From positions 4,521 to 68,520 of the forward strand of contig JASLNU010000077.1 of the NCBI GenBank assembly GCA_030745835.1: DNA of 64,000 nucleotides, in the 5' to 3' direction. The notes beneath the pieces were generated by a model. It was not told the DNA's origin and did no database searches. It was given only the letters and a program-made list of their open reading frames with translations. Shown here in pieces: positions 17,973 through 63,238 of this stretch. Every line of letters begins with the position of its first letter. Position 1 is the stretch's first letter. The DNA is from Rhodospirillales bacterium. Lineage in GTDB: Bacteria > Pseudomonadota > Alphaproteobacteria > Rhodospirillales > UBA2165. The position numbers and the translations under genes were made by a program.

Positions 17973-18015
17973 GTATTCTTCTCGCACCGCACCAGATAAT
18001 TTTCTCACCGTCTTT

Positions 18016-18043
18016 CCCCCTCCCCACTCCGAGGGGGAGGGCC
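18016..18043. repeat. G/C hairpin (CCCTCCCC-loop-GGGGAGGG), REP-like
   Basis: 8-bp stem 18018-18025 / 18034-18041 with an 8-nt loop. A similar hairpin, CTTCCCCC..GGGGGAAG, lies at about 18394-18423. Confidence 0.5.
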
Positions 18044-18251
18044 GGGGTGGGGGGGCAAAACCCAGCATCGCGCCAAGACCGACGCCCGCCTGGCCAACCA
18101 TTCCACGCCTAAGCGGGCTGCATCGATTTCCCACCATACCGGATCACCATCATTCCTACCGTTTCATACCTATTTATACCGCTCCAACGGGTCAAGCCCG
18201 CCGCGCCAGCGCACCGCATATTCTTGAAGTAAATGAAGAAGGTTGAGTATA

Positions 18252-18266
18252 GAACAAAAAAGGAAC
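18252..18266 (+). promoter_or_regulatory. GAAC-N7-GAAC motif (form of the alphaproteobacterial LexA/SOS operator)
   Basis: Exact GAACaaaaaagGAAC. It sits in a 35-nt block (GTATAGAACA...GAACAA.TGCAAG.AAA) that is conserved at 37226-37260. Confidence 0.35.
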
Positions 18267-18288
18267 AATTGCAAGGAAATATGATAGA

Positions 18289-18344
18289 AGCAGCCCGGCT
18301 GGGGATGGCCGGGTCGGCCAGCCGGGCGTGAGGTACACTCGGAA
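18289..18344 (+). repeat. Intergenic repeat family, copy 3 (left bracket of the low-GC cassette)
   Basis: AGCAGCCCGGCTGGGGATGGCCGGGTCGGCCAGCCGGGCGTGAGGTACACTCGGAA. The reverse complement of 20435-20519 shares both ends (AGCAGCCCG ... ACTCGGAA). Confidence 0.6.
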
Positions 18345-18630
18345 ATATATTATGCAGGTGTAATACAAAACCTCCTCATTGCTTGTGGCGCCCCCATCCC
18401 GGCCTTCCCCCATGGCGGGGGGAAGCGCTATTTCGTGACAACGGTACACACATTTCACGGTTATTAGCCCTCTATTAGTATACTGTACCTAAAATAGCAT
18501 TCGCTCCTAATCAAGGGTGGCCACCATAGCAAGATTACGTTGCCGTATGACGTGAGAAGGTAGGTGAAAAAATTCAGTTCCAGATTATTTTTGAAAAATC
18601 AATTCCTACCGCCAAAGGGAAATCGTTCAA

Positions 18631-19497
18631 ATGCAATTCAACGACCTTTTAGAGAACCAGAGTATCGACCCGGAAACCGTTCTGGTGTTACGCCACCGTC
18701 CGTCCGAGCCGAAGCTGCGGGAAGTGTTTCCTTGGCTGGCGGCCGAGCGTCCAGAACTTTTTAACGCCTATCAACGCATTCAAACTCTTAAAGTGGAAAA
18801 ATCCATGATGAGGGCGAGTTACGTTGCTTCTTTCATCGGGCACGAGTCGGGGAAAGGACTGTTCGTTGGATTGTATCGAAGGGGCCGTTGGCGCCCGTTG
18901 AGCTATGAAGCGTATTGGAGAATGCGCTCCAGCAAGGATTTACGAAAATTTGGGCACGGCGGATTTGCAGGCGAGCGGGAGGCAATTCAATGGTTTAATC
19001 TACGCTTAACGGATTGCTACTCGGATTGGAAAGGACGGCTCGTCGTCAACTGGCCTCCGCCGGAACGTTCATGGTGGCGTTGGGCGGGCCGAAATCAATT
19101 CGCGGTTCATGCAATCCACGAAGAAAGCTTACTCGATCCACCGATGCCGGAGTGGGACAAACTGGATCTGACTTGGAACCAATTGGATGTTCTGCCCTCG
19201 AACCTCCAAGCGGCTCTTCGTCAATGGCGCGGTATCTATTACATCTTCGATGAAGAAAATAAAAAGGGATACGTGGGGGCTGCCTTTGGCCAAGACAATA
19301 TTTTGGGAAGGTGGCTTAACTATGCGAAATCCGGTCACGGCGGAAATAAAAAGCTTCGCAAGCGTGATCCGAGTAAGTTTCGTTTTACGATCCTACAGCG
19401 CGTATCTCCAGACATGGAATCCCAGGATGTCCAAAGACTTGAAGCATCATGGAAGGACCGTCTCCATACCAGAGAGTTTGGTATGAACGAGAACTGA
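18631..19497 (+). CDS. GIY-YIG nuclease-domain protein with an uncharacterised ~190-aa N-terminal domain
   Basis: 288 aa. The C-terminal GIYYIFDEENKKGYVGAAFGQDNILGRWLNY...FRFTILQ...RLEASWKDRLHT...MNEN supplies GIY, Y(V)G, Arg, Glu and Asn of the GIY-YIG core. GC content is lower than the flanks. AAGGGA lies 11 nt upstream of the ATG. Confidence 0.8.
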   Translation: MQFNDLLENQSIDPETVLVLRHRPSEPKLREVFPWLAAERPELFNAYQRIQTLKVEKSMMRASYVASFIGHESGKGLFVGLYRRGRWRPLSYEAYWRMRSSKDLRKFGHGGFAGEREAIQWFNLRLTDCYSDWKGRLVVNWPPPERSWWRWAGRNQFAVHAIHEESLLDPPMPEWDKLDLTWNQLDVLPSNLQAALRQWRGIYYIFDEENKKGYVGAAFGQDNILGRWLNYAKSGHGGNKKLRKRDPSKFRFTILQRVSPDMESQDVQRLEASWKDRLHTREFGMNEN

Positions 19498-19548
19498 TTA
19501 TCAAGTTTCTGGAATTCTTTTTCCTTTGACAATCATTGGAGGGTAGGA

Positions 19549-20106
19549 ATGGATTGGGACCGATTTGATAAAGCCCTATTTCGTTGCCTAAACGACATAG
19601 AGATTGTGAAAGCGCAGAGAACGGCGCACCAGGTGTTAAGGAAAACGGTTTCTAATTCGCGTGATGTTCGCTCTGGTTTTCCAGGTCTTGTAAATGCAGC
19701 ATTTAGTTTTTCGACTCAAGGGGTATTAGCTTTAATTTTGGAAAAACAAACTACGAAGGGACGGTCTGGATTTTGGTGGGTTCACCGTGAAGCGTTAAAT
19801 CACGTTTCCGGATATTCACCTGAACAGGAAGATATCGACTTTCTCAATGAATTTTCCTCAGCGATTAAGGTGTTAAGAGATAAATCCTTGTTTCACATTA
19901 GTGAAATTACGCTCCACGACCCGAAGACATTTCGGCAAAATACCGGTCTTACCTACAGAAAGATGGACAAAGCGATTTCAGTTTCGTTGGCCACGATGCG
20001 TGAAATTTTGAAACTTCGCCGTGGCTCAACCACCTGGAGTTCTGGAACTCTTGATGTAGCCACACTCCATTATGATGGCTCGGACATCCCAAGCATTTTT
20101 GACTAA
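19549..20106 (+). CDS. Hypothetical protein with an R-x5-H (HEPN-like) motif
   Basis: 185 aa and AT-rich, with GGAGGG 7 nt upstream of the ATG, lying 51 nt downstream of the GIY-YIG gene. The motif LRDKSLFH (R110...H116) resembles the R[ND]xxxxH HEPN signature. I recognise no other family features. Confidence 0.5.
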   Translation: MDWDRFDKALFRCLNDIEIVKAQRTAHQVLRKTVSNSRDVRSGFPGLVNAAFSFSTQGVLALILEKQTTKGRSGFWWVHREALNHVSGYSPEQEDIDFLNEFSSAIKVLRDKSLFHISEITLHDPKTFRQNTGLTYRKMDKAISVSLATMREILKLRRGSTTWSSGTLDVATLHYDGSDIPSIFD

Positions 20107-27711: not shown

Positions 27712-28530
27712 ATGGTTACCGCCATTAATCTATCGGCGGCGACGGCTACCAACCTGCTGGCGCTGCAGCGGACCACGGATGCGATCGCCAGGACGCAGGA
27801 GCGTCTTGCGACTGGTTTGAAAGTCAATTCCGCGATCGACAATTCGGTTGCATTTTTCGATGCGGCGACGCTGAGCGGGCGGGCAACCGACCTGCAACTC
27901 CTTAAAAATGATGTGGATCAGGCGGTCAGCACCGTGCAAACGGCGGTCGACGGCATCGAGGCGATCGAGGATATCGTCGAGGAAATGAAAGGGCTGGCAC
28001 TCAGCGCGAAAAGCGATTCAAGCTCCACCAACCGGTCCAAGGCCGCCGTCCAATTCAACGATCTCAGATCGCAGCTCGACAACCTGGCCAATGATTCCAT
28101 CTACAAGGGCACCAACCTCTTAACCGGTTCACCGGCAAACCTGAAGGTCACCTTCAGCGAGGACGGGTCTTCGACCCTGACCGTTTCCGGCATCGCTTCC
28201 GATTCCTCGGCCCTGTCGATCACCACCGCCGCATCCGACTGGACCGCCGACACCAATGTCGATTTCGCCATCAACGATCTGGACAGCGCCTTGACCACGC
28301 TGAGGTCCAGCGCCCTGACCTTGGGCTCGAACGCCGACGTCATTTCCTTGCGCCTCGATTTCGCCGACACGCTGATCACCACCCTCGAAAAAGGCGCCGG
28401 CAAGTACATCAATGCCGATCTGAACGCGGAATCGGCAAACCTGCTGACGCTCCAGACCCGGCTGCAACTGGGCACCATCGGGCTCTCGATCGCCCAGCAA
28501 AGCGAACAGGCGGTCTTCAAGCTGTTCTAG
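27712..28530 (+). CDS. Flagellin (short, Caulobacter-type)
   Basis: 272 aa. It has a conserved N-terminal (LLALQRT...RLATGLKVNSAIDN) and C-terminal (ADLNAESANLLTLQTRLQLGTIGLSIAQQSEQAVFKLF) flagellin D0/D1 signature. Confidence 0.85.
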   Translation: MVTAINLSAATATNLLALQRTTDAIARTQERLATGLKVNSAIDNSVAFFDAATLSGRATDLQLLKNDVDQAVSTVQTAVDGIEAIEDIVEEMKGLALSAKSDSSSTNRSKAAVQFNDLRSQLDNLANDSIYKGTNLLTGSPANLKVTFSEDGSSTLTVSGIASDSSALSITTAASDWTADTNVDFAINDLDSALTTLRSSALTLGSNADVISLRLDFADTLITTLEKGAGKYINADLNAESANLLTLQTRLQLGTIGLSIAQQSEQAVFKLF

Positions 28531-28550: not shown

Positions 28551-28653
28551 ACCACGCCGGAACGGGCGGGGGCCCTTCAATCGGCCGCACCCGGGTGCTA
28601 GACTGGCCGCCGCGCGAAGCGCAAACTGTAATTCGAACGGGTTGCCAAGGGGG

Positions 28654-29727
28654 ATGCAAGGGGGAACGATCGTGGCGGAACCGGAAAACCAGGCCGAACG
28701 CGAAGCCTATTACGCCAAGATCGACAAGACCGATATGTCGCCGCTATGGACCACCACCCTGGTACCGCCCCTGCCCAAGGATTTCGTCCGCGCCGTGCCC
28801 CATCTTTGGGATTTTGACAACCAACTGCGGCCCTTGCTGATCGAGGCCGGCGGCTTGATCACCGCCTTTGAGGCCAACCGGCGGGTTTTGTCGCTGGAAA
28901 ATCCGGGCCTCGACCAGCCGCCGCGGATTCTCGAAAGCCTCTATGCCGGCTTGCAGATGATCCTGCCCGGCGAATGCGCGCCGGCGCACAAGCACACGCC
29001 GTCGGCGCTGCGCTTCATCTTAGAGGGCGAGGGCGCCTGGACCGCCGTTTCCGGCGAAAAATCCTACATGAAGCCGGGCGATTTTATCATCACGCCGTCG
29101 ATGACCTGGCACGATCACGGCCATGACGGCGACGGCCCCTTTTTCTGGATGGACGGGCTGGATATCCCGATGGTCGCCGCCTTCGGCCCGATGTTCTTCG
29201 AGGGCTACCCGGAAGACCGCGCGCCGTTGCACCGCCCGCCCGGCGACAGCCGCGCCCGCTACGGCGCCAACATGCGCCCGGCCGGCGAAAGCTGGGACAA
29301 TCCGGAATCGCCGATCTTCCACTATCCGTACGAACCTTCGCGCGAAGCCCTCGAGGAATTGCGCAAAAACGACGAATGGGACCCTTATGCCGGCATCAAG
29401 CTGGAATATATCGATCCGACCACCGGCGGCAGCGCCATGCCGACCATGTCCACCTTCCTGCAACTCCTGCCCAAGGGCTTCAAGACCGAGGCATACCGAA
29501 GCACCGAAAACACCGTGTTTTCCCCGGTCGAGGGAACGGGCCGCATCATCGCCGGCGAACCGGGCGCCGAGAAAACCATCGAATGGAAGCCCCGCGATAT
29601 TTTCGCTATCCCCTGCTGGGTTGCCTACCGGCTGGAGGCGGACACCGAGGCCACCCTGTTCAGCTACACCGACCGGACGGCGCAAGTGAAACTTGGCCTC
29701 TGGCGCGAACTGCGCGGCAATGCCTGA
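28654..29727 (+). CDS. Gentisate 1,2-dioxygenase-like bicupin dioxygenase
   Basis: EREAYYAKIDKTDMSPLW..., AHKHTPSALRFILEGEGAWTAV and WHDHGHDG are typical of gentisate or 1-hydroxy-2-naphthoate dioxygenases. The start is uncertain (TTG 28642, ATG 28654 or GTG 28672). Confidence 0.75.
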   Translation: MQGGTIVAEPENQAEREAYYAKIDKTDMSPLWTTTLVPPLPKDFVRAVPHLWDFDNQLRPLLIEAGGLITAFEANRRVLSLENPGLDQPPRILESLYAGLQMILPGECAPAHKHTPSALRFILEGEGAWTAVSGEKSYMKPGDFIITPSMTWHDHGHDGDGPFFWMDGLDIPMVAAFGPMFFEGYPEDRAPLHRPPGDSRARYGANMRPAGESWDNPESPIFHYPYEPSREALEELRKNDEWDPYAGIKLEYIDPTTGGSAMPTMSTFLQLLPKGFKTEAYRSTENTVFSPVEGTGRIIAGEPGAEKTIEWKPRDIFAIPCWVAYRLEADTEATLFSYTDRTAQVKLGLWRELRGNA

Positions 29728-32127: not shown

Positions 32128-32216
32128 GCGGCGCGATGGGTCCAAACAAATTCACAGACTCGGGCCGCCGGTTGGTTTACATTTGAACCCGATAACCGTG
32201 AATCGGGGGAGCAAGC

Positions 32217-33302
32217 ATGCCGGATCAAACCGTAATCGAACCCTTGCACGGGTCGAGGCGCGGCGGCCAGGCGATTGAAAGCCTGTGGTACACGCGCTGC
32301 CCGGTGCCGACCGCCAGTTCGATCGCCATCGATCACGGCTGGCTGGACGCCGAATTCGCCGACGAAGGCATCACCATCTCGTCCTTGCGCGCATCCGAAG
32401 CGCGCGAAGTGCGCGAATCCCACTTTGATCACCGGCAAGCGGATTCCTTCCGCCAAGGCGGCAATATACCACCGATCTGGACCCGCGCCGGCGGCGGCGA
32501 CATGGCGCTCATCGGGCTTACCTGGGTGGAGGAATACCAGGCGGTGCTCGCCCTGCCCGAATCCGGGATCAAGAATGTGCGCGGGCTCAAGGGCCGGCGC
32601 ATCGGGATTCCCAAGCGGGTCAATGACCAAATCGATTTTTTCCGTGCCATGTGCCTGCGCGGCGTGCTGACCGCGCTTGCCATCGAGGGGATGGACGAAA
32701 AAGATGTGGAACTGGTTTATCTTCCGGTCGAGGAGACCTATATCGGCGCCGACGCCGCCTCCCACAGCGGCACCCTTTGGGCCGGCGGCAACCGCGCCCG
32801 CCGTCAGAAGGCCGATAGCTTCGCCCTGATCAGGGGCGAGGTGGATGCCATTTATACGATTGGCGCGACGGGAGCCCATATGGCGGCATCCCTCGGCGCG
32901 GTCGAAGTCGCCGAGTTCGGCTTTAACGCCGATCCGGCGATAAGCGGCGGCAACGAAACACCGGCGGCGCTGACGGTAAGCGGCGCGCTGTTGCGCGAAC
33001 GCCCCGATCTGGTGGCGCGCTATATGAAGCAGTTGCTATTAGCGGCGCGCTGGGCCGAGGACAACCCGTGGGCCACGGCCGCAATCGTTGCCGCCGATGT
33101 CGGCGCCCCCCTGGAATGGGCCGGAGCGGCTTATGGTCCAGATTTCCACGCCAAGTTTGCGCCGGGCCTCGACGACGATTGGATCGCCGGCCTTAAGGCG
33201 CAAAAGGATTTCCTTTTGAAATGGGCCTTCATCGAAGGCGATTTCGATATCGACGATTGGATCGATTCGGGGCCCTTGGAAATGGCCCGCGCGATGCTTT
33301 GA
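32217..33302 (+). CDS. Cytoplasmic SsuA/NMT1-fold protein resembling DszB (2'-hydroxybiphenyl-2-sulfinate desulfinase) family
   Basis: 361 aa with no signal peptide. WYTRCPVPTA, ...SHF..., ...SFRQGGNIPP..., LKGRRIGI, DVELVYLP and TVSGALLRERPDLV...ARWAEDN parallel my recollection of DszB (YSNCPVPNA, VHF, YTRFGGEIPP, LAGRRIGV, DVELVPI, TVSSGLVRQRPGLV...GLWARDH). Confidence 0.55.
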   Translation: MPDQTVIEPLHGSRRGGQAIESLWYTRCPVPTASSIAIDHGWLDAEFADEGITISSLRASEAREVRESHFDHRQADSFRQGGNIPPIWTRAGGGDMALIGLTWVEEYQAVLALPESGIKNVRGLKGRRIGIPKRVNDQIDFFRAMCLRGVLTALAIEGMDEKDVELVYLPVEETYIGADAASHSGTLWAGGNRARRQKADSFALIRGEVDAIYTIGATGAHMAASLGAVEVAEFGFNADPAISGGNETPAALTVSGALLRERPDLVARYMKQLLLAARWAEDNPWATAAIVAADVGAPLEWAGAAYGPDFHAKFAPGLDDDWIAGLKAQKDFLLKWAFIEGDFDIDDWIDSGPLEMARAML

Positions 33303-33377: not shown

Positions 33378-34726
33378 ATGGCAGGCGGTAAAGGTCCGGT
33401 GAGCAAGCCGAGGCGCACTGTCATCATGGGTGCGGCGGGGCGCGATTTCCATAATTTCAACATGGTCTATCGCGGCGATCCTGGCGCCGAGGTGCTGGCC
33501 TTCACGGCGGCGCAAATCCCCGGTATCGAGGGCCGCCGCTACCCGCCCGAGCTTGCCGGCCCGCTCTACCCCGATGGCATCCCGATCATCGAGGAAGCCG
33601 GCCTGACCGATTTCTGCGGCGCGCACGGGGTCAGCGAGATTGTCTTCGCCTATTCCGATGTCGAGTACGCCACCGTCATGCATCATGCCTCGCGGGCGCT
33701 CGCCGCCGGCGCCGACTTCATCCAGTTGGGTCCGGCGCGCACGATGATCGATGCGGCCAAGCCGGTGATCGCGGTATCGGCGATCCGCACCGGCTGCGGC
33801 AAGTCGCAGACCACCCGGCACCTGTCCAGGTTCCTGCGCGGCCGCGGCCTCGGGGTCGCCGTCATCCGCCATCCCATGCCCTATGGAGATCTCGCCGCCC
33901 AGGCGGTGCAGCGCTTCGCCAGCCTCCATGACCTGGCGGCGGCGGACTGCACCATCGAAGAGCGCGAGGAGTACGAACCCCACATCGCCGAGGGGACGCT
34001 GGTTTTTGCCGGCGTCGATTACCAAACCATCGGCGAAGCGGCCGCCAAGGAGGCCGATATCCTGCTCTGGGACGGCGGCAACAACGATTTTCCGTTCTAC
34101 CGGCCGGACCTGCATATCGTGCTCGCCGACGCCCTGCGCCCGGGCCAGGAAACCACCCACCATCCCGGCGAGGCGGTGTTGCGCATGGCCGATATCGCGG
34201 TCATCGCCAAGTCCGACGCCGCCGAAGCCGGCGCCATCGATGAGGTAACGCGCAATATCCGCGCCATTGTCCCCGATGTGCCGCTGGTCCATGCCGCATC
34301 GCCGGTGGTGCTGGATGACGCCGGCGCGGTTCATGGCAGGCGCGCCCTGGTGGTCGAGGACGGCCGACCCTGACCCATGGCGGCATGGCCCATGGCGCCG
34401 GGCTCATCGCGGCGCGCGAGGCCGGCGCCGGGGCCATCGTCGATCCCCGGAGTTCGGCGGCGCCGGCCATCGCCGAGGTCTATGAACGCTATCCCCATCT
34501 GGGGCCGGTGCTGCCTGCGGTCGGCTACGGCGCGGCGCAGGTGGCGGCGCTCGAGGCAACCATCGATGCCGCCGATGCCGAGGTGGTCGTCGCCGCGACG
34601 CCGATCGACCTGGCCCGCCTGATCGATGTCGGGAAGCCGATCATCCGGGCGCGCTATGCCTATGCCGATATCGATGCCCCCACCCTCACCGGCCTGGTCG
34701 GCGCGTTTCTGGATGGTATGAATTAA
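33378..34726 (+). pseudogene. COG2403-like predicted GTPase / cyclic 2,3-diphosphoglycerate synthetase-family gene, interrupted by a 1-nt frameshift
   Basis: Two ORFs (33378-34373 and 34385-34726) join into one reading frame if one C is added at 34362-34366 (GGCCGACC -> GGCCCGACC). That gives ...ALVVEDG-PTLTHGGMAHGAGLIAAREAG.... The downstream frame has no stop between 34355 and 34385. Confidence 0.6.
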
Positions 34727-34802
34727 TACCAAGGCGCGGTCTTTCGAAGCGGCTTCGTTGCTGGTAAAAGCGCCGAAACCAAGCCAGGGAAGGAAGCCAC
34801 CC

Positions 34803-35885
34803 ATGTTCTATCGATGCGCCCCCCATGCCCCCGCCACCGATCACGGCCACGGCATCCAAGTCGGCCAGGGCAAGAAGCATTTTACCGTCGACATCCATTG
34901 CCACGTGGCGGTGCCGGCGGCCGACGCCGCCCTCGAAGGCGCCGAGCCGTCGCAAAGGCAGAAAGCCAATGCCGAGCGCAACCCGCTGACCGCCGAGATC
35001 AACGCCCGCCAGGCCGAAAGCATCGCCGCCAACCTGACCGACCCCAAGGTGCGCCTCAAAGACATGGACCGCGACGGCATCGACGTGCAGGCCATATCGC
35101 CATCGCCGTTCCATTACAATTACGGCTATCCGGCGGACGCGACCCGGGAATCGTGCCGCATCATCAATGACCGGGTGGCCGAAATCGTGGCTGCGCACCC
35201 GGACCGCTTCGTCGGCATGGGCACGGTGCCGTTGCAGGACGCCGGCATGGCGGTCGCCGAAATGAACCGCTGCATCGATGATCTCGGCCTCAAGGGGATC
35301 GAGATTTCGACCAATGTCGACGGCAAGGAACTGACCCGCGCCGGCCTCGAAAGCTTTTTCGCCCGCGCCGAGGAAACCGGCACCCTGATCTTCATGCACC
35401 CGATCGGCACCAGCTTCACCGAACGCATGGACGACCATTATTTCCGCAACCTGATCGGCCATCCCCTGGAAAGCGCGCTGGCCGTCGGGCATCTGGTCTT
35501 CGACGGCTATCTCGACCGCTATCCCGGCCTTAAAATCTGCATCGCCCATGGCGGCGGCTATATCCCTTCCTATTGGGGCCGCTTCGATCACCCCTGGGAG
35601 CGGCGCGATGATTGCCGCGTAAATATCGGCACGACGCCGATGGAGCATGTGAAGAAGCTCTATTTCGACACTGTCGTCTTCAACGAGCCGCAGCTGCGCC
35701 ACCTTATCGAGGTCTGGGGGCCCGATCACATCGTCATGGGCACCGACTATCCGTTCGACATGGCCCAGCCCGATCCGGTCGGCCACGTCGATTCGGTCCA
35801 GGGCCTGAGCGACGCCGACAAGGCCCGGGTCATGGGCGGCAACGCCGCGAAGCTGCTCGGCATCGAAGTTCCGGCGGCGGCATAA
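34803..35885 (+). CDS. Amidohydrolase-2 (ACMSD/LigW/gamma-resorcylate decarboxylase-like) family protein
   Basis: FTVDIHCHV metal motif, ...LIFMHP..., IAHGGGYIPSYWGRFDH and VMGTDYPFD. I chose the ATG at 34803 after GGGAAGGAAG. Confidence 0.85.
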   Translation: MFYRCAPHAPATDHGHGIQVGQGKKHFTVDIHCHVAVPAADAALEGAEPSQRQKANAERNPLTAEINARQAESIAANLTDPKVRLKDMDRDGIDVQAISPSPFHYNYGYPADATRESCRIINDRVAEIVAAHPDRFVGMGTVPLQDAGMAVAEMNRCIDDLGLKGIEISTNVDGKELTRAGLESFFARAEETGTLIFMHPIGTSFTERMDDHYFRNLIGHPLESALAVGHLVFDGYLDRYPGLKICIAHGGGYIPSYWGRFDHPWERRDDCRVNIGTTPMEHVKKLYFDTVVFNEPQLRHLIEVWGPDHIVMGTDYPFDMAQPDPVGHVDSVQGLSDADKARVMGGNAAKLLGIEVPAAA

Positions 35886-38890: not shown

Positions 38891-39331
38891 TCACGCCGCC
38901 GCGTCAGCAACACTGAGCTCCAACCGTTTGCCGAGGATCGCAAGCGCGTCTTCGAGGCGCGTGATCTTGGTTTTATGGCGCGGGCTCAGCATGCGCCGTA
39001 CTTCGGCTTCGCCCACGCCGAGCGCCTTGGCGAGGGCGACCCTGGTTGTGCCGGATTCGCGAAACGCTTGGTTGAGCGCCGCCTTCGCCGCGATCAGGAC
39101 GCCCGGGCGCACCAGCGACCGCCCACGTGCCGGCGAGGGTTTGGGCAGGGCTTCTCCCTCGACCAGCAAGCCGGCGATCATTTCTTCCAGGCAGTCCTGC
39201 GCTTCCTCAAGGGCTTCGTCCCGGGTTGCGCCGTCGGTGGCGCCCCAACCGAAGTCGGGAAAAGAGACGACGAACCTGCCATCTTCATCCTCGGTAAGCT
39301 TGGCGGGGTATGCGAGCGAGATAGTGGTCAT
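38891..39331 (-). CDS. hicB: HicB-family antitoxin (RNase H-like fold + C-terminal HTH)
   Basis: 146 aa. The N-terminus is YPAKLTEDEDGRFVVSFPDFGWGATDGATRDEALEEAQDCLEE. The C-terminus is an HTH (ESGTTRVALAKALGVGEAEVRRML). Confidence 0.85.
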   Translation of the reverse strand: MTTISLAYPAKLTEDEDGRFVVSFPDFGWGATDGATRDEALEEAQDCLEEMIAGLLVEGEALPKPSPARGRSLVRPGVLIAAKAALNQAFRESGTTRVALAKALGVGEAEVRRMLSPRHKTKITRLEDALAILGKRLELSVADAAA

Positions 39332-39342
39332 GATCCGGTATC

Positions 39343-39565
39343 CTAAAGTTCGGTTCGGTCGAGCCCCAAATCCTTCAACATGGAACGGAGTAGCCCTTCG
39401 CCGATTTCCTTTTTCAAATCCTTAATCGTCGTGCGCCGGTTCCCGAAATTTAGGGTGGCGTGGGAACCCTTGCCGCGATTTTGGTTGATGCTGATGGCCA
39501 CGCCCCGATAAATCCGTGGGCCGGGCAATCTTACGAAGGCGGCGAATAAGCTCGTTGCCGTTCAT
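39343..39565 (-). pseudogene. hicA: HicA-family mRNA-interferase toxin, frameshifted
   Basis: The N-terminus MNGNELIRRLRKIAR (ATG at 39565) lies in one frame. The C-terminal ...RIYRGVAISINQNRGKGSHATLNFGNRRTTIKDLKKEIGEGLLRSMLKDLGL lies in another. The frames switch within CGGCCCACGG (about 39504-39513). Confidence 0.7.
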
Positions 39566-47216: not shown

Positions 47217-48218
47217 TCAGGTTCGCCTGGATTTGATCTGGTCGGCGGCGGCGGCGGCGATAATCACCAGCCCGACGGCAACGCGTTGCCAATAGGAGTG
47301 CACGTTCAACAGGTTCAAGCCGTTTGCCAACACCATCATAATGAACACGCCGATCATACTCTTGTAAAGTTTACCGACCCCGCCATGCAGGGCGGCGCCG
47401 CCGAGGACGACGGCGGCAATCGACGTCAGTTCGTAAAATTCGCCGGCGGTCGGTTGGCCGGACTGTAGGCGCGAGGCCAGCATGACCCCGGCGACGCCGC
47501 CAAGGACGCCACACCAGACGTAAGCCGAGGTCACAACCCGCTTTACCTGAATACCGGCCAGGAATGCCGCCTCGGTGTTGCCGCCGGTGGCAAACAAGCG
47601 CCGCCCATAGGCCGTAAAATGCAACAACCAGTTAAATATGATGAACAAAATAACCGGCACCCAGATCAAGTAATGAATGCCGAGAAAACGGCCGCTGCCG
47701 AGTTCGAGGAAAATTTCCGGCAACCCATCCTCGCCGACGATCGGGCGGCCGTCGGTAATCAGCAACACGACACCGCGCACAATGACCATCGTCCCTAGCG
47801 TCGCGATAAAGGTATTCACCTTCAAATGCGATACAATGATGCCGTTGACGTAGCCAACCGCGGCGCCCGCCGCGATCCCGGCGGCGATCCCCAGCGGAAC
47901 ATTGGTTTCCAGCATAACCCAGGCGGAAACGCAGCCCGATAGCGCCACAATAGATCCAACCGACAGATCAAAACCGCCGGAAATTATGACGTATGTCATC
48001 CCCATCGCGACGATGGCCATCACCGACGCCTGCAAAAGAATATTGGAAAGGTTGACCGGCGATAAAAACCGATCGGAGAGCAGCGCCGTCCCCAAACAAA
48101 GCACAACCAGCGCCATCAACGGCATTTGGTCCAGAACCGAGACCAGCGTAAACCGTTTTTCGCCGGCTTCGAGCGCGACCGGCGCGGCCACGCTTTGATT
48201 TTCGCTACCGTTCGTCAT
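47217..48218 (-). CDS. Sugar ABC transporter permease (RbsC/AraH-like)
   Basis: 333 aa, multi-TM, with the motif ...GGFDLSVGS.... Confidence 0.85.
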   Translation of the reverse strand: MTNGSENQSVAAPVALEAGEKRFTLVSVLDQMPLMALVVLCLGTALLSDRFLSPVNLSNILLQASVMAIVAMGMTYVIISGGFDLSVGSIVALSGCVSAWVMLETNVPLGIAAGIAAGAAVGYVNGIIVSHLKVNTFIATLGTMVIVRGVVLLITDGRPIVGEDGLPEIFLELGSGRFLGIHYLIWVPVILFIIFNWLLHFTAYGRRLFATGGNTEAAFLAGIQVKRVVTSAYVWCGVLGGVAGVMLASRLQSGQPTAGEFYELTSIAAVVLGGAALHGGVGKLYKSMIGVFIMMVLANGLNLLNVHSYWQRVAVGLVIIAAAAADQIKSRRT

Positions 48219-49687
48219 CCGCCCAAAGCTTCCCTCAGATAACCTTCACTATATTCGCCTGATTCTCGGGACATACGGGCGACGATATCACCTTGCCGCA
48301 TGGCCAGGATATTATCACTCATATTGATAACCTCTACCATTTCAGAAGAAGCAAACAGCACACCGCCGCCTTGTTCGGTGAAATCTCTCATTAGCCTGTG
48401 GATGCGTGCCTTGGCGCCGACATCAATGCCGTCGGTCGGTTTATCGAGCAACAACACCTTGGGATTTCCCATCAGCCAGCGGGCAAAAATCACTTTCTGC
48501 TGATTACCGCCGGAAAGAAAACGAACCAATTTTTTCGGATCACGCGGCCGGATATCCAAAGTCTCCATCAGATCGTCGACGACATTGTTGATCCTTTTCA
48601 TGTCGAGCCGCCAGCCGTTCGATACCTCTGAAAGATGGGGCAAAACGATATTGTCGCGCACGCTTAAATCATACATCAGCGCTTTTCGCCGCTCGCCCGG
48701 CACCATTCCAATACCGTTATTAATGGCATCTTTCGGTTTTCTGAGGTTCAAATTATTGCCGGCAATGGTCAACGAGGTGGCGCTATCGCCGGCGCCGAAA
48801 AGCTTCTGCAAATATTCGGGCGTGCCGCTGCCAAGCAGCCCGGCCAATCCCAGCACTTCGCCACGGCGCAAGTTAAGCTCGCCATCATATTCAATAAGCG
48901 GATCGCCGAACTCTAGTTTATGGGGGTGATGCAATTCCTGCAGATCGCGGCCGGTCATCAAGCGGATAATATTTTCCTTCTCGATTTCACCGCGTATCGA
49001 GACATCAACGACTTTCCCGTCCCGCAATGTCGTGCAGCGGTCGGAAAGTTCGACGACTTCCTCGAGCCTGTGCGACACATAGATAATGCCGACCTTCTGC
49101 TCTTTAAGCGAATGAATGATTTCGAACAACCGCTCCGCTTCCCGGTGTTCAAGCGAAGCCGTCGGTTCGTCGAGGATCAGTATCCTGGCCTGATACAGAA
49201 GCGCCTTGGCGATAACCACCAACTGCCGTTCGGCGAAAGGCAACCTATTCACGGAAATATCGAGCGGGCCATGGTAGTTCAATCTTTTCAACGCTTCACC
49301 CGCCCGCTCCCGCATGCGGCGGCGGTCGAGCGCCGGAATAAAACCCAACCATCTTGTTGACGGTATTTCCCCGAGCGTAACGTTTTCAGCTACCGTCGCA
49401 TCGGGAACCAATTGCATTTCCTGAGGGATAATAACGATACCGGCATTCAGGGCTTCTCTCGGATCGGTTATTTCCGATGGCGCGCCATCAATGATTATTT
49501 CACCGGAATCCTTTTTATAAATTCCTCCCAGAATTCTAATAAGGGTCGATTTGCCGGCGCCGTTTTCACCGACCAGCGTGTGCACTTCGCCCGCCGCCAG
49601 ATCAAACGAAACCTTATTCAGCGCCTGGGTGCCGTAAAACTGCTTGGATATTTCGCGGACGGCCAACAGGTCCGTGTTATCAGCCAA
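48215..49687 (-). CDS. Sugar ABC transporter ATP-binding protein (duplicated ATPase, RbsA-like)
   Basis: 490 aa: Walker A GENGAGKST, signature LSGGNQQK, and two NBD halves. Its stop overlaps the permease start. Confidence 0.9.
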   Translation of the reverse strand: MADNTDLLAVREISKQFYGTQALNKVSFDLAAGEVHTLVGENGAGKSTLIRILGGIYKKDSGEIIIDGAPSEITDPREALNAGIVIIPQEMQLVPDATVAENVTLGEIPSTRWLGFIPALDRRRMRERAGEALKRLNYHGPLDISVNRLPFAERQLVVIAKALLYQARILILDEPTASLEHREAERLFEIIHSLKEQKVGIIYVSHRLEEVVELSDRCTTLRDGKVVDVSIRGEIEKENIIRLMTGRDLQELHHPHKLEFGDPLIEYDGELNLRRGEVLGLAGLLGSGTPEYLQKLFGAGDSATSLTIAGNNLNLRKPKDAINNGIGMVPGERRKALMYDLSVRDNIVLPHLSEVSNGWRLDMKRINNVVDDLMETLDIRPRDPKKLVRFLSGGNQQKVIFARWLMGNPKVLLLDKPTDGIDVGAKARIHRLMRDFTEQGGGVLFASSEMVEVINMSDNILAMRQGDIVARMSRESGEYSEGYLREALGG

Positions 49688-49745
49688 TCTCCCGTCTCCC
49701 TCGTCTTCGATAAGGTTATATTTTTTGTTAGACCTTGATCAATAA

Positions 49746-49758
49746 AGAATAGTATTCT
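49746..49758. promoter_or_regulatory. Palindrome AGAATA-G-TATTCT in the divergent promoter region (candidate TetR operator)
   Basis: Perfect 6-bp arms between the ABC operon (start 49687, minus strand) and the tetR-family gene (start 49830, plus strand). Confidence 0.3.
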
Positions 49759-49829
49759 CTAATAAGAAACAAAGAGTCAACCGGTAGATTCCGTTCGGCT
49801 CAGACAATTATAATACGATTAGGTAGCAG

Positions 49830-50426
49830 ATGGCCCAGGTTAAAAAGACATCGGTGCGCGACGCCATTTTGGAAAGTGCGACGGAACTTTTCACCGAACA
49901 CGGTTATTCCAATACGACACTCGCCGATATCGCCCGCGACGCCGCCATCACCATGTCAAATATATACAACTACTACGACTCGAAGCTCGATGTTTTGTAC
50001 GCCATTTACGAACCCTGGCTGGACCAACGGATCGAATATGTGGCGCAGGAAACAGATAAAATCGAAGACCCTAGGGAAAAAATGCGTTTTCTGTTGAAGT
50101 ATTTGTTCAGCGATCTGCCCGCCGACACCAATTGTTTCGCCAACAACTTCATGCAAGCCATCGTCACCCGGAAATCGGAAGAGAATTACTCTCGCGATCT
50201 GCTTCTGCGGTCCGAGGAAAAAATATCCGGGATCATTCGAAAAGCAGTGCCGGATACGGTCAAGGACGCCCTCGCCGATAACATTTTGACCCACCTCCTG
50301 TTTATGGCCCATGACGGTTTTGTCATCAATTACGCCCTCAACGGGCCGTCGCGCCGGGTCGACGCCATTGTCGATCTGCTTTGCAATCTGATTTTCAGTT
50401 CGGCCGCCGCCGATACTTCCTCTTGA
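49830..50426 (+). CDS. TetR/AcrR-family transcriptional regulator
   Basis: 198 aa with the N-terminal HTH ...FTEHGYSNTTLADIARDAAITMSNIYNYY. Confidence 0.85.
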   Translation: MAQVKKTSVRDAILESATELFTEHGYSNTTLADIARDAAITMSNIYNYYDSKLDVLYAIYEPWLDQRIEYVAQETDKIEDPREKMRFLLKYLFSDLPADTNCFANNFMQAIVTRKSEENYSRDLLLRSEEKISGIIRKAVPDTVKDALADNILTHLLFMAHDGFVINYALNGPSRRVDAIVDLLCNLIFSSAAADTSS

Positions 50427-60552: not shown

Positions 60553-61338
60553 TTAAACCGCCGAATAGACGCTCTTCGGTAAATAATGAAGGACACGCCT
60601 CTCCAATAGAACAACGGCGCCATAGGCGACAATTCCGACCACCGTCAACATGAAGATCGAGACGAAGACCAACGCCGTGTTGCCGGAGCCCTCGCCGAAA
60701 ATAAGCAGATATCCCAATCCGACGCTGCCACCGACCATTTCACCGACAACGACGCCGATCACTGACAGGGTGGCGGCGATGCGCAACCCGGAAAACAGGG
60801 GCGGCAGGGCGTCGTGAAATTCGATCAGCCTGAATATTTGCCACCTATCGGCGCTGAAGGTGCGCGCCAGATTAATCAAATCGGGATCGACGGTGCGGAT
60901 CGCGCCGAGAACATTGACCATGATCGGGAAGAATACGATCAATACCGCCACCAGAATTTTGGGGTAAACGGTAAATCCGAACCACAAAACGAACAATGGC
61001 GCAAAGGCCACCTTGGGCGCGATCTGCAAGGCCAGGATATATGGCGAAAGAATAAATTCGGCGCGCACCGAAATGCCCAAAATGTAACCGATAGTCATCC
61101 CGAGCAATGATCCGATGATAAATCCGGCCAAGGTTTCCAAGGCCGTAATACCGGTATGAAAGACCAGTTGTTCGGTTTGAAAGGCGCGCATGAATTCGTT
61201 GAAAACCGAAGAAGCGGTCGGAATGATGTAGGGCGGAATACCGAGCATACCGGGGCCCCATTCCCAGGCGGCGAGGAAGGCAAGCAGCACGGCTATGCTC
61301 GCCATCACGCCTCCGCGAAAAGACCTGGCCGTCTCCAT
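60553..61338 (-). CDS. NitT/TauT-family ABC transporter permease
   Basis: 261 aa and multi-TM, resembling SsuC/TauC. Confidence 0.85.
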   Translation of the reverse strand: METARSFRGGVMASIAVLLAFLAAWEWGPGMLGIPPYIIPTASSVFNEFMRAFQTEQLVFHTGITALETLAGFIIGSLLGMTIGYILGISVRAEFILSPYILALQIAPKVAFAPLFVLWFGFTVYPKILVAVLIVFFPIMVNVLGAIRTVDPDLINLARTFSADRWQIFRLIEFHDALPPLFSGLRIAATLSVIGVVVGEMVGGSVGLGYLLIFGEGSGNTALVFVSIFMLTVVGIVAYGAVVLLERRVLHYLPKSVYSAV

Positions 61339-61371
61339 CCCTGGCCGCTCCTTCGGAATTCGAAACGACGG

Positions 61372-62364
61372 TTATTGGATGAATTGATTGGTATACAAAT
61401 CATCCAAGGGCTGCGCCTTACGCACAATGCCGCTTTTGACGTAGAACTTTTGTAGACTGGCAAGACGCGCCCGGTCCATGGCGCCTATTTTTTTCTGACC
61501 GGGATAGACGTACTTATTATACATCGCGAAGACGCTCTTAATGTATTTGTCCTTGCCCTTGTTCTTGGCGACAAAGGCCGTGTAGTCCTTGGTTGCCTGG
61601 TCGGGATCGTTCATGATGCCGGCCATGCCCTTGAGCGTCGCCCGCACCAGTTTTTGCACCAGGGCTGGATTTTCCTTGATCGTTTTATCGGCGACCAGGA
61701 TCGCTTGCGCCATGCTTTTGAAGTAGTCGTCGGCCGGAAAGATTTTGACTTTCTTGCCGGCGCCGATGGCGATCGCCGTCCAGTCGGGAACGCTGGCCAT
61801 GGCGTCCGCCTTGCCGGCCATGAACAGTTTCCACACACCGGCGGGACCGGCGGCTTGGGCATTGATATCCTTGCGCGACAGGCCCTGACTGGCGAGCATC
61901 CCGAGGAGCGCGTAGAAAGTCGTATCCTGGAAGGCAAGCGTGGTGACGGTCTTACCCTTGAGGTCGGCGGGGCCGTTGATTCCCCGGTCGGCATGCGCGG
62001 TTAGATGCATTAAAGAGCCACCGCCCAAAACCGCGACGGCTTTGACCGGAATGCCGTTGGGACGGACGATCATCGATGTGTCACCGATACCGCCGCCGAC
62101 AACCGCATTACCGGCGCCAACCTGCTTGGCGACATCGACGCCGCCACGGGCCATCTGGAACTTGACGTTGAGACCTTCCGATTTGTAATAACCCCTTGCC
62201 TTGGCGAGCATCCAGGGTGCAAAGGCCGGCAGGAACGGCGGCGCCGGCAACAAATAAGTAACGTCTTCGGCCTGAGCCTTCTGGACATTACTCGCCGCCA
62301 GCAAGGTAGCAACCGCAACAACCGGAATGATGAACATTTTAGTTAGGACACTTTGCTTAGACAT
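61372..62364 (-). CDS. NitT/TauT-family (NMT1/SsuA-like) ABC transporter substrate-binding protein
   Basis: Signal peptide MSKQSVLTKMFIIPVVAVATLLAAS.... The ATG at 62364 has GGAGGA 6 nt upstream. Confidence 0.8.
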   Translation of the reverse strand: MSKQSVLTKMFIIPVVAVATLLAASNVQKAQAEDVTYLLPAPPFLPAFAPWMLAKARGYYKSEGLNVKFQMARGGVDVAKQVGAGNAVVGGGIGDTSMIVRPNGIPVKAVAVLGGGSLMHLTAHADRGINGPADLKGKTVTTLAFQDTTFYALLGMLASQGLSRKDINAQAAGPAGVWKLFMAGKADAMASVPDWTAIAIGAGKKVKIFPADDYFKSMAQAILVADKTIKENPALVQKLVRATLKGMAGIMNDPDQATKDYTAFVAKNKGKDKYIKSVFAMYNKYVYPGQKKIGAMDRARLASLQKFYVKSGIVRKAQPLDDLYTNQFIQ

Positions 62365-62416
62365 TATTTCCTCCATTGCTGATTAATTATCTCCACAAGG
62401 TACTTTATTTTTGGTC

Positions 62417-63238
62417 TTAAATCTTTACTTCATGTGCCATTTCATCGACACGCAGTAATTCCATCAAGCGGGTGACATATTCACCGACCCGGTTCGCCAT
62501 ATCGTGCCGGCGCGCCATCGGATTGGCGCGTTCGGGCAGGTCGACGTTGATTTCCTCTATGATCGTTCCGGGTCTCGGGCTCATCACCAGAATCCGGTCC
62601 GAAAGCGTCGCCGATTCCATAAGGTCATGGGTGATGAAAAGCGCCGTCTTTTTTTCCGACGCCAGGGTCTTGGCCAAATCCTGCTGCAACACCATTTTGG
62701 TCTGTGCATCGAGGGCCGAGAACGGCTCGTCCAGCAAAAGCACCTTGGGATCGACCGCCAAGGTGCGCGCCAGAGCCGCTCTTTGGCGCATGCCGCCGGA
62801 TAGTTGATGCGGATAACTATCCTCGAACCCGTCCAACCGGCATTTATGCAAAAGATCGAGCGCCTTTTCCTTGCGGGCCTTGGCGGGCACGCCCTGGATT
62901 TCCAAACCCAATTCCACGTTTTTGCAGATCGTGCGCCAAGGCAGGAGCAAATCCTTTTGCAGCATGAAGCCGACATGGGAATTGGGCTTGTCGACTATTT
63001 CGCCGTCCATAAAGACCTCTCCCAGGCTCGGCTGGTAAAGCCCCGAACCCATATTCAACAGCGTGCTTTTGCCGCAGCCGCTGGGCCCGATCAGGGACAC
63101 CACCTCGCAGTCCCTGATAGACAGGCTGACATTTTTTACCGCCGTCAGCACATCGCTGCCGTCGCCTCCCTTTATCGGGAAGTGCCGGGTGACATCGCGG
63201 AATTCGAGCCTGATATCAGCCATACTGTTACCCGCCAA
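62417..63238 (-). CDS. NitT/TauT-family ABC transporter ATP-binding protein
   Basis: 273 aa: GPSGCGKST, LSGGMRQRAALAR, LLLDEPFSALD. Confidence 0.9.
   Translation of the reverse strand: MAGNSMADIRLEFRDVTRHFPIKGGDGSDVLTAVKNVSLSIRDCEVVSLIGPSGCGKSTLLNMGSGLYQPSLGEVFMDGEIVDKPNSHVGFMLQKDLLLPWRTICKNVELGLEIQGVPAKARKEKALDLLHKCRLDGFEDSYPHQLSGGMRQRAALARTLAVDPKVLLLDEPFSALDAQTKMVLQQDLAKTLASEKKTALFITHDLMESATLSDRILVMSPRPGTIIEEINVDLPERANPMARRHDMANRVGEYVTRLMELLRVDEMAHEVKI

Follow-up and report, generated by a model that had tools for sequence, protein, structure and literature searches.

What might a protein with the fold of a periplasmic substrate-binding protein be doing, apparently in the cytoplasm, among genes for enzymes that open aromatic rings? 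The question is raised by a 361-amino-acid open reading frame (ORF) at positions 32217-33302 of a 64,000-nucleotide stretch of DNA from a Rhodospirillales bacterium (GenBank assembly GCA_030745835.1, contig JASLNU010000077.1, positions 4,521 to 68,520), which is referred to here as the window. The original prediction, made from the sequence alone, was that the encoded protein is a desulfinase of the DszB type rather than a component of an ATP-binding cassette (ABC) transporter. DszB, the 2'-hydroxybiphenyl-2-sulfinate desulfinase of Rhodococcus (EC 3.13.1.3; PDB 2DE2/2DE3), with TdsB and BdsB as its orthologues, is to our knowledge the only characterised enzyme of its kind. The best explanation of the evidence presented below is that the window protein is a soluble, cytoplasmic enzyme of the DszB lineage within the SsuA/NMT1 (type II periplasmic-binding-protein) fold. 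The part of the prediction that makes it a cytoplasmic homologue of DszB stands, and desulfination itself would follow by analogy with DszB.

The predicted reading frame was confirmed, with an ATG start behind a Shine-Dalgarno-like GGGGGAG, and its GC content at third codon positions (GC3 = 0.76) is in line with that of the neighbouring genes. A stop codon (TGA) stands in frame five codons upstream of the ATG, and because of it no longer form of the protein and no leader are possible. Residues 1-21 (MPDQTVIEPLHGSRRGGQAIE) are hydrophilic, and the first β-strand of the structural model begins at residue 22. Neither the sequence of the 361-residue protein nor the region upstream, closed by its stop codon, provides a signal peptide, in agreement with the original prediction, and none of the 31 aligned homologues (alignment A1) has a hydrophobic N-terminus. 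The prediction was also right that no permease or ATPase gene adjoins the target: there is none within 10 kb on either side. ABC genes occur no closer than 27 kb away, at 60553-63238, where they come with their own binding protein. This importer is a genuine example of what the window protein is mislabelled as, and is an internal control for it: its SsuA-family binding protein (61372-62376, minus strand) has a clear Sec signal, beginning MEEIMSKQSVLTKMFIIPVVAVATLLAASNVQKAQA, and BLASTP detects no similarity between it and the window protein.

Among proteins of solved structure, DszB is the closest relative by both sequence and fold. In a phmmer search against all PDB chains, DszB was the top match (E = 6.9e-22), with residues 12-349 of the window protein aligned to residues 11-352 of DszB, whereas the best genuine binding protein in the same search was Escherichia coli SsuA, with an E-value of 0.002 over 68 residues. 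The contrast is equally clear with a profile built from the family: hmmsearch recovers DszB over its full length (E = 1.8e-37), and the best true SsuA (E = 5.9e-6) has just a local match of about 53 residues at the RxGG loop, which leaves out the Cys/His region. The AlphaFold2 model of the window protein has a mean pLDDT (predicted local distance difference test) of 89.2 and a predicted template-modelling score of 0.88, with pLDDT values of 80-94 around the motifs. The three best structural matches found by Foldseek are all DszB chains (E 4.8e-22 to 1.4e-21, template-modelling (TM) scores 0.74-0.78, 26% identity); the top match has E = 4.8e-22 and TM scores of 0.75/0.78, and the model superposes on 2DE3. 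The runners-up SsuA, TauA, ThiY and THI5 have E-values of 1e-13 or weaker, with 12-18% identity. Thus the superposition on DszB that was proposed along with the original prediction gives a close structural match, and in the proposed alignment, by phmmer and by family profile, the Cys, His and Arg positions correspond; periplasmic binding proteins are not the closest characterised homologues, and the gene could not start further upstream. The window protein does share the superfamily fold with the binding proteins SsuA and TauA of NitT/TauT importers (Foldseek E about 1e-13), together with a weak local match at the RxGG, or 'GGNIPP', loop, but it is only 16-18% identical to them and lacks both a signal peptide and a partner permease and ATPase. 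The THI5/NMT1 HMP-P synthase is likewise of the same fold and enzymatic, and the window protein has a partial match to the Pfam model NMT1; similarity to THI5 is, however, low (Foldseek E about 1e-11, 14-15% identity), and its chemistry and context are unrelated. THI5 is a suicide enzyme that uses pyridoxal phosphate and its own histidine. NMT1 is the sole Pfam model to match above threshold (24.3 bits against 20.5; residues 90-172, covering positions 57-130 of the 216 in the profile), and the NCBIfam models TIGR01728 (SsuA_fam, 76.8 bits against a cut-off of 163.5) and NF008588 (22.3 against 299) both remain below their cut-offs. No curated Pfam or NCBIfam model captures the DszB-like family. 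We consider it very probable that the window protein is a cytoplasmic DszB homologue and no transporter component.

All of the motif blocks quoted in the original prediction are present in the window protein, and they align with the DszB crystal sequence 2DE2 as stated there: YTRCPVPTA with YSNCPVPNA, SHF with VHF, SFRQGGNIPP with YTRFGGEIPP, LKGRRIGI with LAGRRIGV, DVELVYLP with DVELVPIS, and TVSGALLRERPDLV...WAEDN with TVSSGLVRQRPGLV...WARDH. In this register the DszB residues Ser25, Cys27, His60 and Arg70-x-Gly-Gly73 correspond to Thr26, Cys28, His69 and Arg79-Gln-Gly81-Gly82. The computational active-site model of DszB comprises Ser25, Cys27, His60, Arg70 of the conserved RXGG motif, and Gly73; Cys27, which is essential for activity, donates the proton in an electrophilic aromatic substitution by which SO2 is set free, the His60-Ser25 dyad stabilises the thiolate, and the RXGG motif binds the sulfinate (PMC6100217). 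Conservation was counted over 244 relatives, with representatives down to 32% identity. The cysteine is kept in 222 of them and is invariant in alignment A1, the histidine is kept in 226, the arginine in 241, and the two glycines in about 240. At the position of Thr26, a conservative replacement of DszB Ser25, threonine is found in 208 relatives and serine in 16. The window protein thus resembles DszB in being cytoplasmic, leaderless, about 360 residues long and of the SsuA/NMT1-type bilobal fold, and in carrying Ser/Thr-x-Cys, His and Arg-x-Gly-Gly in register within a full-length alignment.

How, then, does it differ from DszB? The catalytic residues are adjoined in the family by the invariant or nearly invariant Trp24, Arg27, Arg66, Glu67, His72, Asn83, Trp88, Trp103 and Arg134, and at these nine positions DszB has, in the same order, Thr, Asn, Gly, Thr, Tyr, Glu, Leu, Pro and Ser. 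The mismatch, as judged from sequence, includes the positions of DszB Asn26 and Tyr63, which are the invariant Arg27 and His72 of the family. The additional invariant cationic and aromatic residues suggest a substrate that would be smaller and more polar or anionic than hydroxybiphenyl sulfinate, and that probably also carries a carboxylate; the hydrophobic biphenyl sulfinate could hardly be accepted by a pocket predicted to be so much more polar and cationic than that of DszB. Confidence in the model is lowest for residues 171-200 (pLDDT 65-73), the counterpart of DszB residues 187-204, which form a helix induced by the substrate. Since homology and the catalytic residues are found, while linkage to dsz genes and matching pocket residues are not, the window protein is no DszB orthologue and, on present alignments, would best be filed in an uncharacterised, widespread sister family of DszB.

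How widespread is this family? The window protein itself is present on at least 20 contigs, from the marine Rhodospirillales metagenome-assembled genome GCA_030747315.1 and from JGI, ENA and Tara assemblies. A word-indexed search returned 1420 matching proteins, many at 50-72% identity, and every named match was called 'ABC transporter substrate-binding protein', the kind of label that the original prediction had expected. The resemblance to DszB has been caught by at least one automatic annotation, the UniRef name of an Achromobacter homologue, which starts "2'-hydroxybiphenyl-". An exhaustive search of 1.84 billion cluster representatives found 807 at E <= 1e-3 and 206 at E <= 1e-30, and a metagenome scan with the window protein alone found 3 loci only. 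The motifs WYTRCP[VI]P[TS] and VRESHF[DN]H were found in no fewer than 582 species genomes, including those of Comamonas, Variovorax, Polaromonas, Pigmentiphaga, Rhizobium, Agrobacterium, Mesorhizobium, Nostoc and the Solirubrobacterales, and also on 82 plasmids or chromids, among them pSymA of Sinorhizobium meliloti. Unlike DszB, then, the family extends beyond fuel-desulfurizing strains, to marine Rhodospirillales and hundreds of Proteobacteria, Actinobacteria and Cyanobacteria. The idea that such a protein would be an isolated oddity did not hold, for the family is found in hundreds of species and most of its members lie in sulfur-acquisition loci.

The association with sulfur acquisition emerged when crude gene calls from 80 genome loci were clustered and the commonest neighbours were identified with NCBIfam. 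One neighbour cluster has its best match in the alkanesulfonate monooxygenase SsuD (NF001939/TIGR03565), with SfnG second, and another in the 'SfnB family sulfur acquisition oxidoreductase' (TIGR04022), with DszC second. An SsuD-like and/or SfnB/DszC-like gene was found by tblastn within 4 kb of the DszB-like gene in 48 of the 81 loci (59%) outside the clade of the window protein described below, and both in 22 of them. DszA belongs to the luciferase-like monooxygenase (LLM) superfamily and DszC has the acyl-CoA-dehydrogenase fold; as in the dsz system, the neighbours in the wider family are drawn from these same two flavoenzyme superfamilies. Other recurring neighbours are Dpp-type ABC importers, TctC proteins, SsuC-type permeases, TonB receptors and sigma-54 regulators. 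On pSymA of S. meliloti (RCAM1750) the operon order is DszB-like, acyl-CoA-dehydrogenase-like, DszB-like, NmrA and FAD (flavin adenine dinucleotide)-dependent monooxygenase, with a Dpp-type importer alongside. The homologue of Variovorax paradoxus is accompanied by an LLM oxidoreductase, an acyl-CoA-dehydrogenase-family protein, a sulfurtransferase, a cysteine dioxygenase-family protein and metC; thiol dioxygenases produce sulfinates. Two or more DszB-like paralogues per locus are found in 17 of 90 loci, which suggests sets of substrate-specialised enzymes. In L011, L040, L078, L080, L082 and others of our numbered loci with sulfur genes, two to four tandem or nearby paralogues are interleaved with several SsuD-like genes.

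Further information comes from the 935-residue homologue P0162, in which an entire FAD-dependent hydroxylase of aromatic rings (PRK06126 subfamily; 502 bits, cut-off 445) is followed by a C-terminal DszB-like domain. It could be a true fusion, which would provide a Rosetta-stone link to phenolic substrates. Two apparent fusions to sigma-54 and acyl-CoA-dehydrogenase domains (P0151 and P0142) were discarded, as they have just pieces of the partner domain and seem to arise from read-through between neighbouring genes. Together, the sulfur context of the family and P0162 independently favour C-S chemistry on aromatic or similar substrates. The link between this family and sulfur-acquisition loci appears not to have been described before.

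The window protein belongs to a branch of the family that is exceptional in its context but not in its active site. Rooted on DszB, a neighbour-joining tree places it in a terminal clade with the proteins of loci L007, L012, L022, L090, L091, L092, L094 and L096, to which it is about 59-72% identical. An Amidohydro_2 gene lies within 4 kb in four of the nine clade loci, compared with four of 81 elsewhere (p = 0.003), and a gentisate-type bicupin in two of the nine. In L091, L007 and the contig of P0042, the DszB-like gene shares its first 11 nucleotides with an Amidohydro_2 gene, and in L012 an Amidohydro_2 gene directly follows the DszB-like gene. An apparent 747-residue fusion of the two in L012 proved to be two adjacent genes, the ORF crossing a run of N (34 X residues). 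The idea of a shared orthologous Amidohydro_2 partner was also abandoned: the partners in L091/L007, in L012 and in the window are mutually only 26-32% identical, and for that reason the association holds at the superfamily level only. The nearest PDB relatives of the L091-type protein are uncharacterised 'Amidohydrolase' entries (8sm6-9, 6m1w) and PtmU3, not ACMSD. Other genes neighbouring the clade or its relatives encode coenzyme A (CoA) ligases and CoA transferases (L022, L101, L094), TRAP and TctC carboxylate-binding proteins, and MarR, GntR and TetR regulators. Two single instances concern the gene directly downstream of the DszB-like gene: in L094 (9246-9916) it is a frameshifted gene of the sulfite-oxidase family (Oxidored_molyb), and in L022 (8299-9038) an apparently split gene of the formate/nitrite-transporter family. 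Both could serve in handling a small anion released by the enzyme. In L091, Asp_Glu_race, CN_hydrolase and Amidohydro_1 genes were considered as a maleamate/maleate branch, and NCBIfam assigned them instead to a dihydropyrimidinase/hydantoinase cluster, so that they lend no support to the cleavage of an N-heterocyclic ring. Four alignment positions distinguish the clade from members in sulfur contexts, and none is near the catalytic motifs. Because all four are non-catalytic, the same chemistry would be expected in this clade; its context has changed while its active site, as read from the alignment, has not.

In the window, the DszB-like gene is flanked by ring-modifying enzymes, as the original prediction had said: a gentisate 1,2-dioxygenase, a CoxL-type molybdenum hydroxylase whose gene ends 89 nucleotides upstream, and an ACMSD-like member of Amidohydro_2 (Table 1). 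The genes of this putative operon are all on the plus strand and separated by 63-112 nucleotides, and on the basis of this spacing and orientation the DszB-like gene is probably co-transcribed with these three. A promoter and terminator scan of 27.4-37.4 kb found sites no more often than in shuffled sequence, and leaves the operon limits undefined. Among the neighbours annotated with Pfam there is no maleylpyruvate isomerase or hydrolase. The CoxL-type protein scores below the cut-off of every NCBIfam model, the closest being those for the glyceraldehyde dehydrogenase alpha subunit and carbon monoxide dehydrogenase, and no gene for a CoxS (2Fe-2S) or CoxM (FAD) subunit lies within 10 kb of it on either side; the protein is form-II-like. 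The P-loop gene downstream of the DszB-like gene is split by a one-nucleotide deletion (a missing C) near 34363. It is likewise frameshifted in L001, L003 and L004, and in L002, from the same species, an extra C restores a single gene of 433 codons (...EDGPTLTHGGMAHG...); the frameshift reflects either a mistake in assembling a GGCCC run or a genuine pseudogene polymorphism. Other gene callers place the start of the ACMSD-like gene at about 34803.

Table 1. Features of the window that bear on the DszB-like gene (positions are those of the window).
Feature	Position	Strand	Basis
Gentisate 1,2-dioxygenase (bicupin), first gene of the putative operon	28642..29727	+	TIGR02272 equivalog, 454.6 bits against 442.1; Cupin_2
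CoxL-type molybdenum hydroxylase large subunit, 778 aa	29791..32127	+	Pfam Ald_Xan_dh_C/MoCoBD_1/MoCoBD_2; best PDB match CoxL 8uem, 1e-148
In-frame TGA (32199-32201) and Shine-Dalgarno-like GGGGGAG (32204-32210)	32199..32216	+	Read from sequence
DszB-like coding sequence (361 aa and stop)	32217..33302	+	ATG start; ORF and translation
Thr26-Arg27-Cys28 codons; Cys28 is TGC at 32298-32300	32292..32300	+	Alignment with DszB
His69 codon	32421..32423	+	Alignment with DszB His60
Arg79-Gln80-Gly81-Gly82 codons, RXGG motif	32451..32462	+	Aligned with DszB Arg70...Gly73
P-loop gene, ORFs of 331 aa and 113 aa	33378..34726	+	Weak match to cyclic 2,3-diphosphoglycerate synthetase 9sxb
ACMSD-like, metal-dependent Amidohydro_2 decarboxylase/hydrolase, last gene of the putative operon	34758..35885	+	Pfam 3.8e-46; human ACMSD best PDB match, 8e-58
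NitT/TauT-type ABC importer	60553-63238	-	Permease 60553-61338, binding protein 61372-62376, ATPase 62417-63238

Some other features of the window were recorded in passing. A lone flagellin gene of 272 codons (27712-28530, plus strand) stands directly upstream of the putative operon, with no other flagellar genes within 10 kb on either side. A HicB-like antitoxin of 146 residues is encoded at about 38891-39500 on the minus strand; a 52-residue HicA toxin is also called in some assemblies of the same species, and the toxin-antitoxin pair is placed between genes for a flavin mononucleotide-dependent dehydrogenase and a CoA ligase. The GC content dips to 0.49 at 18001-20000 and to 0.515 at 48001-50000, against a background of about 0.60-0.65, and these dips may be islands or RNA genes.

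What reaction might the window protein catalyse? There is in our estimation an even chance that it is a cofactor-free C-S lyase, a desulfinase acting on a polar aromatic sulfinate. By analogy with DszB, from which we infer catalysis, leaving group, substrate class and the link to the neighbouring enzymes alike, His69, Arg79 and the backbone of Gly81-Gly82 would hold the leaving group, an anion (most probably a sulfinate) attached to an sp2 carbon that is aromatic or heteroaromatic. Cys28 would give a proton to the ipso carbon, the His69-Thr26 pair would stabilise the developing Cys28 thiolate, and SO2 or bisulfite would depart without the help of a cofactor. The enzyme would in this way strip a sulfur substituent from an aromatic acid, leaving a ring that could be cleaved by the ring-processing enzymes encoded alongside. 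A broader proposal is tentative and on balance rather doubtful. Proteobacteria, Actinobacteria and Cyanobacteria would share a common but so far overlooked 'dsz-like' module for removing sulfur from natural organosulfur compounds, aromatic or borne by peptides, and the family would be the third enzyme hitherto missing from it, a DszB-like desulfinase working with a flavoenzyme of the SfnB/DszC type and a monooxygenase of the SsuD/LLM type. On this view the clade of the window protein would have been recruited from sulfur scavenging to carbon catabolism, where it would act with Amidohydro_2 enzymes and gentisate-type dioxygenases on sulfur-substituted aromatic acids.

A number of observations weigh against desulfination. 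Identity to DszB is only about 26%, and with polar pocket residues that DszB lacks, the substrate certainly differs and the leaving group might too. Unlike the dsz system, the window has no dszA- or dszC-type genes near the DszB-like gene, whose neighbours are instead ring-cleavage and decarboxylase-type enzymes; the 21 kb annotated with Pfam revealed no gene for handling sulfite, the remainder of the window not having been scanned for one. SsuD-, SfnB-, DszA- or DszC-type genes are found within 4 kb in none of the nine clade loci, against the 48 of 81 elsewhere (Fisher p = 6e-4), and the neighbours of the clade are carboxylate-oriented and would also fit a decarboxylation-type reaction. The loci behind all such context counts are not phylogenetically independent, and a literature search found no study of the DszB-like family.

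An alternative that we regard as unlikely is that the same fold and Cys/His/Arg machinery serve an ipso-protonation lyase, which would take CO2 (as a cofactor-free decarboxylase) or nitrite off an aromatic acid before its ring is opened by gentisate-type cleavage. A carboxylate is similar to a sulfinate in shape and charge and might be held by the same His/Arg/Gly site. The clade contexts include much carboxylate handling (the 11-nucleotide overlap with the start of the DszB-like gene by Amidohydro_2 at three loci, TctC and TRAP proteins, CoA ligases and transferases), gentisate- or 5-aminosalicylate-type dioxygenases recur in them, and the formate/nitrite-transporter-family gene of L022 directly follows a homologue. 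For nitrite there is a precedent in DnpB, a 288-residue protein of the type II periplasmic-binding-protein (PBP2) fold that is annotated as a nitrate-transporter binding protein and that, in the catabolism of 2,4-dinitrophenol by Paraburkholderia sp. KU-46, eliminates nitrite from a Meisenheimer complex without a cofactor (bioRxiv 10.1101/749879). The likeness between DnpB and the window protein is one of description: both are PBP2-fold proteins labelled as ABC binding proteins, and DnpB in fact works in the cytoplasm, as part of a catabolic operon, needing no cofactor to expel a small anion from a substrate derived from an aromatic compound. DnpB is, however, the shorter of the two, and its hydride-Meisenheimer complex comes from a partner reductase that is absent from the window; no nitro-reducing hydride transferase, such as a DnpA-like short-chain dehydrogenase/reductase, adjoins the DszB-like gene. 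The putative operon moreover already has a decarboxylase-type Amidohydro_2 enzyme, and the active site is the same as in the 59% of loci outside the clade that have sulfur genes, where the role of a decarboxylase or denitrase is not obvious.

The remaining alternatives are less probable still. The fold is primarily a binding fold, and a non-catalytic cytoplasmic ligand binder, whether a sensor, a substrate chaperone for Amidohydro_2 or SsuD/SfnB enzymes, or a carrier of sulfite or sulfinate using the Arg-rich pocket and the Cys, would be in keeping with an abundance of conserved Arg and His such as proteins that bind oxyanions have, with the several paralogues at 17 of 90 loci, and with translational coupling to Amidohydro_2 genes, which suggests a 1:1 complex. 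We nevertheless find a ligand binder quite improbable, given that the conserved residues are exactly the catalytic set of DszB, including the Cys that is essential there, that solved binding proteins of the same fold align just locally, over the 53 or so residues mentioned, and that no DNA-binding or signalling domain is attached, the lone sigma-54 'fusion' looking like a read-through of two genes. A role in maturation of the adjacent CoxL-type enzyme, for example in the delivery of sulfur to its molybdenum centre together with the P-loop protein, might be read from the conserved Cys, from the place of the DszB-like gene between the CoxL-like and P-loop genes, on the same strand with gaps of 75-90 nucleotides, and from the molybdenum enzymes of three families that adjoin clade members (in the window, L090 and L094). 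Those three enzymes are mutually unrelated, though, a CoxL-like neighbour is found only in the species of the window among about 100 loci, and the dominant family context is SsuD/SfnB rather than molybdenum enzymes, which makes such a role very improbable. As for a genuine ABC-transporter substrate-binding protein, the database names and the weak NMT1 and SsuA_fam matches are what speak for it, and it is effectively refuted by the absence of a signal peptide, of any possible upstream start, of leaders among the homologues of alignment A1 and of an adjoining permease or ATPase, by an SsuA_fam score far under its cut-off, and by a closest structure that is DszB and not SsuA.

A cofactor-free desulfinase therefore remains the reading we prefer for the window protein, at the even chance given above, and it is directly testable, since tractable members of the family are present on pSymA of S. 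meliloti, in V. paradoxus and in Comamonas. The biological desulfurization of fuels is limited by DszB, its slow step. A large natural family with the catalytic residues of DszB and a different, polar pocket would widen the scope of cofactor-free cleavage of C-S (or C-X) bonds, and would supply new scaffolds for enzyme engineering. It would also correct the label 'ABC transporter substrate-binding protein' across a family found in at least 582 species genomes, and would point to a desulfination step, so far overlooked, by which bacteria assimilate organosulfur compounds and perhaps also break down aromatic ones in the sea.

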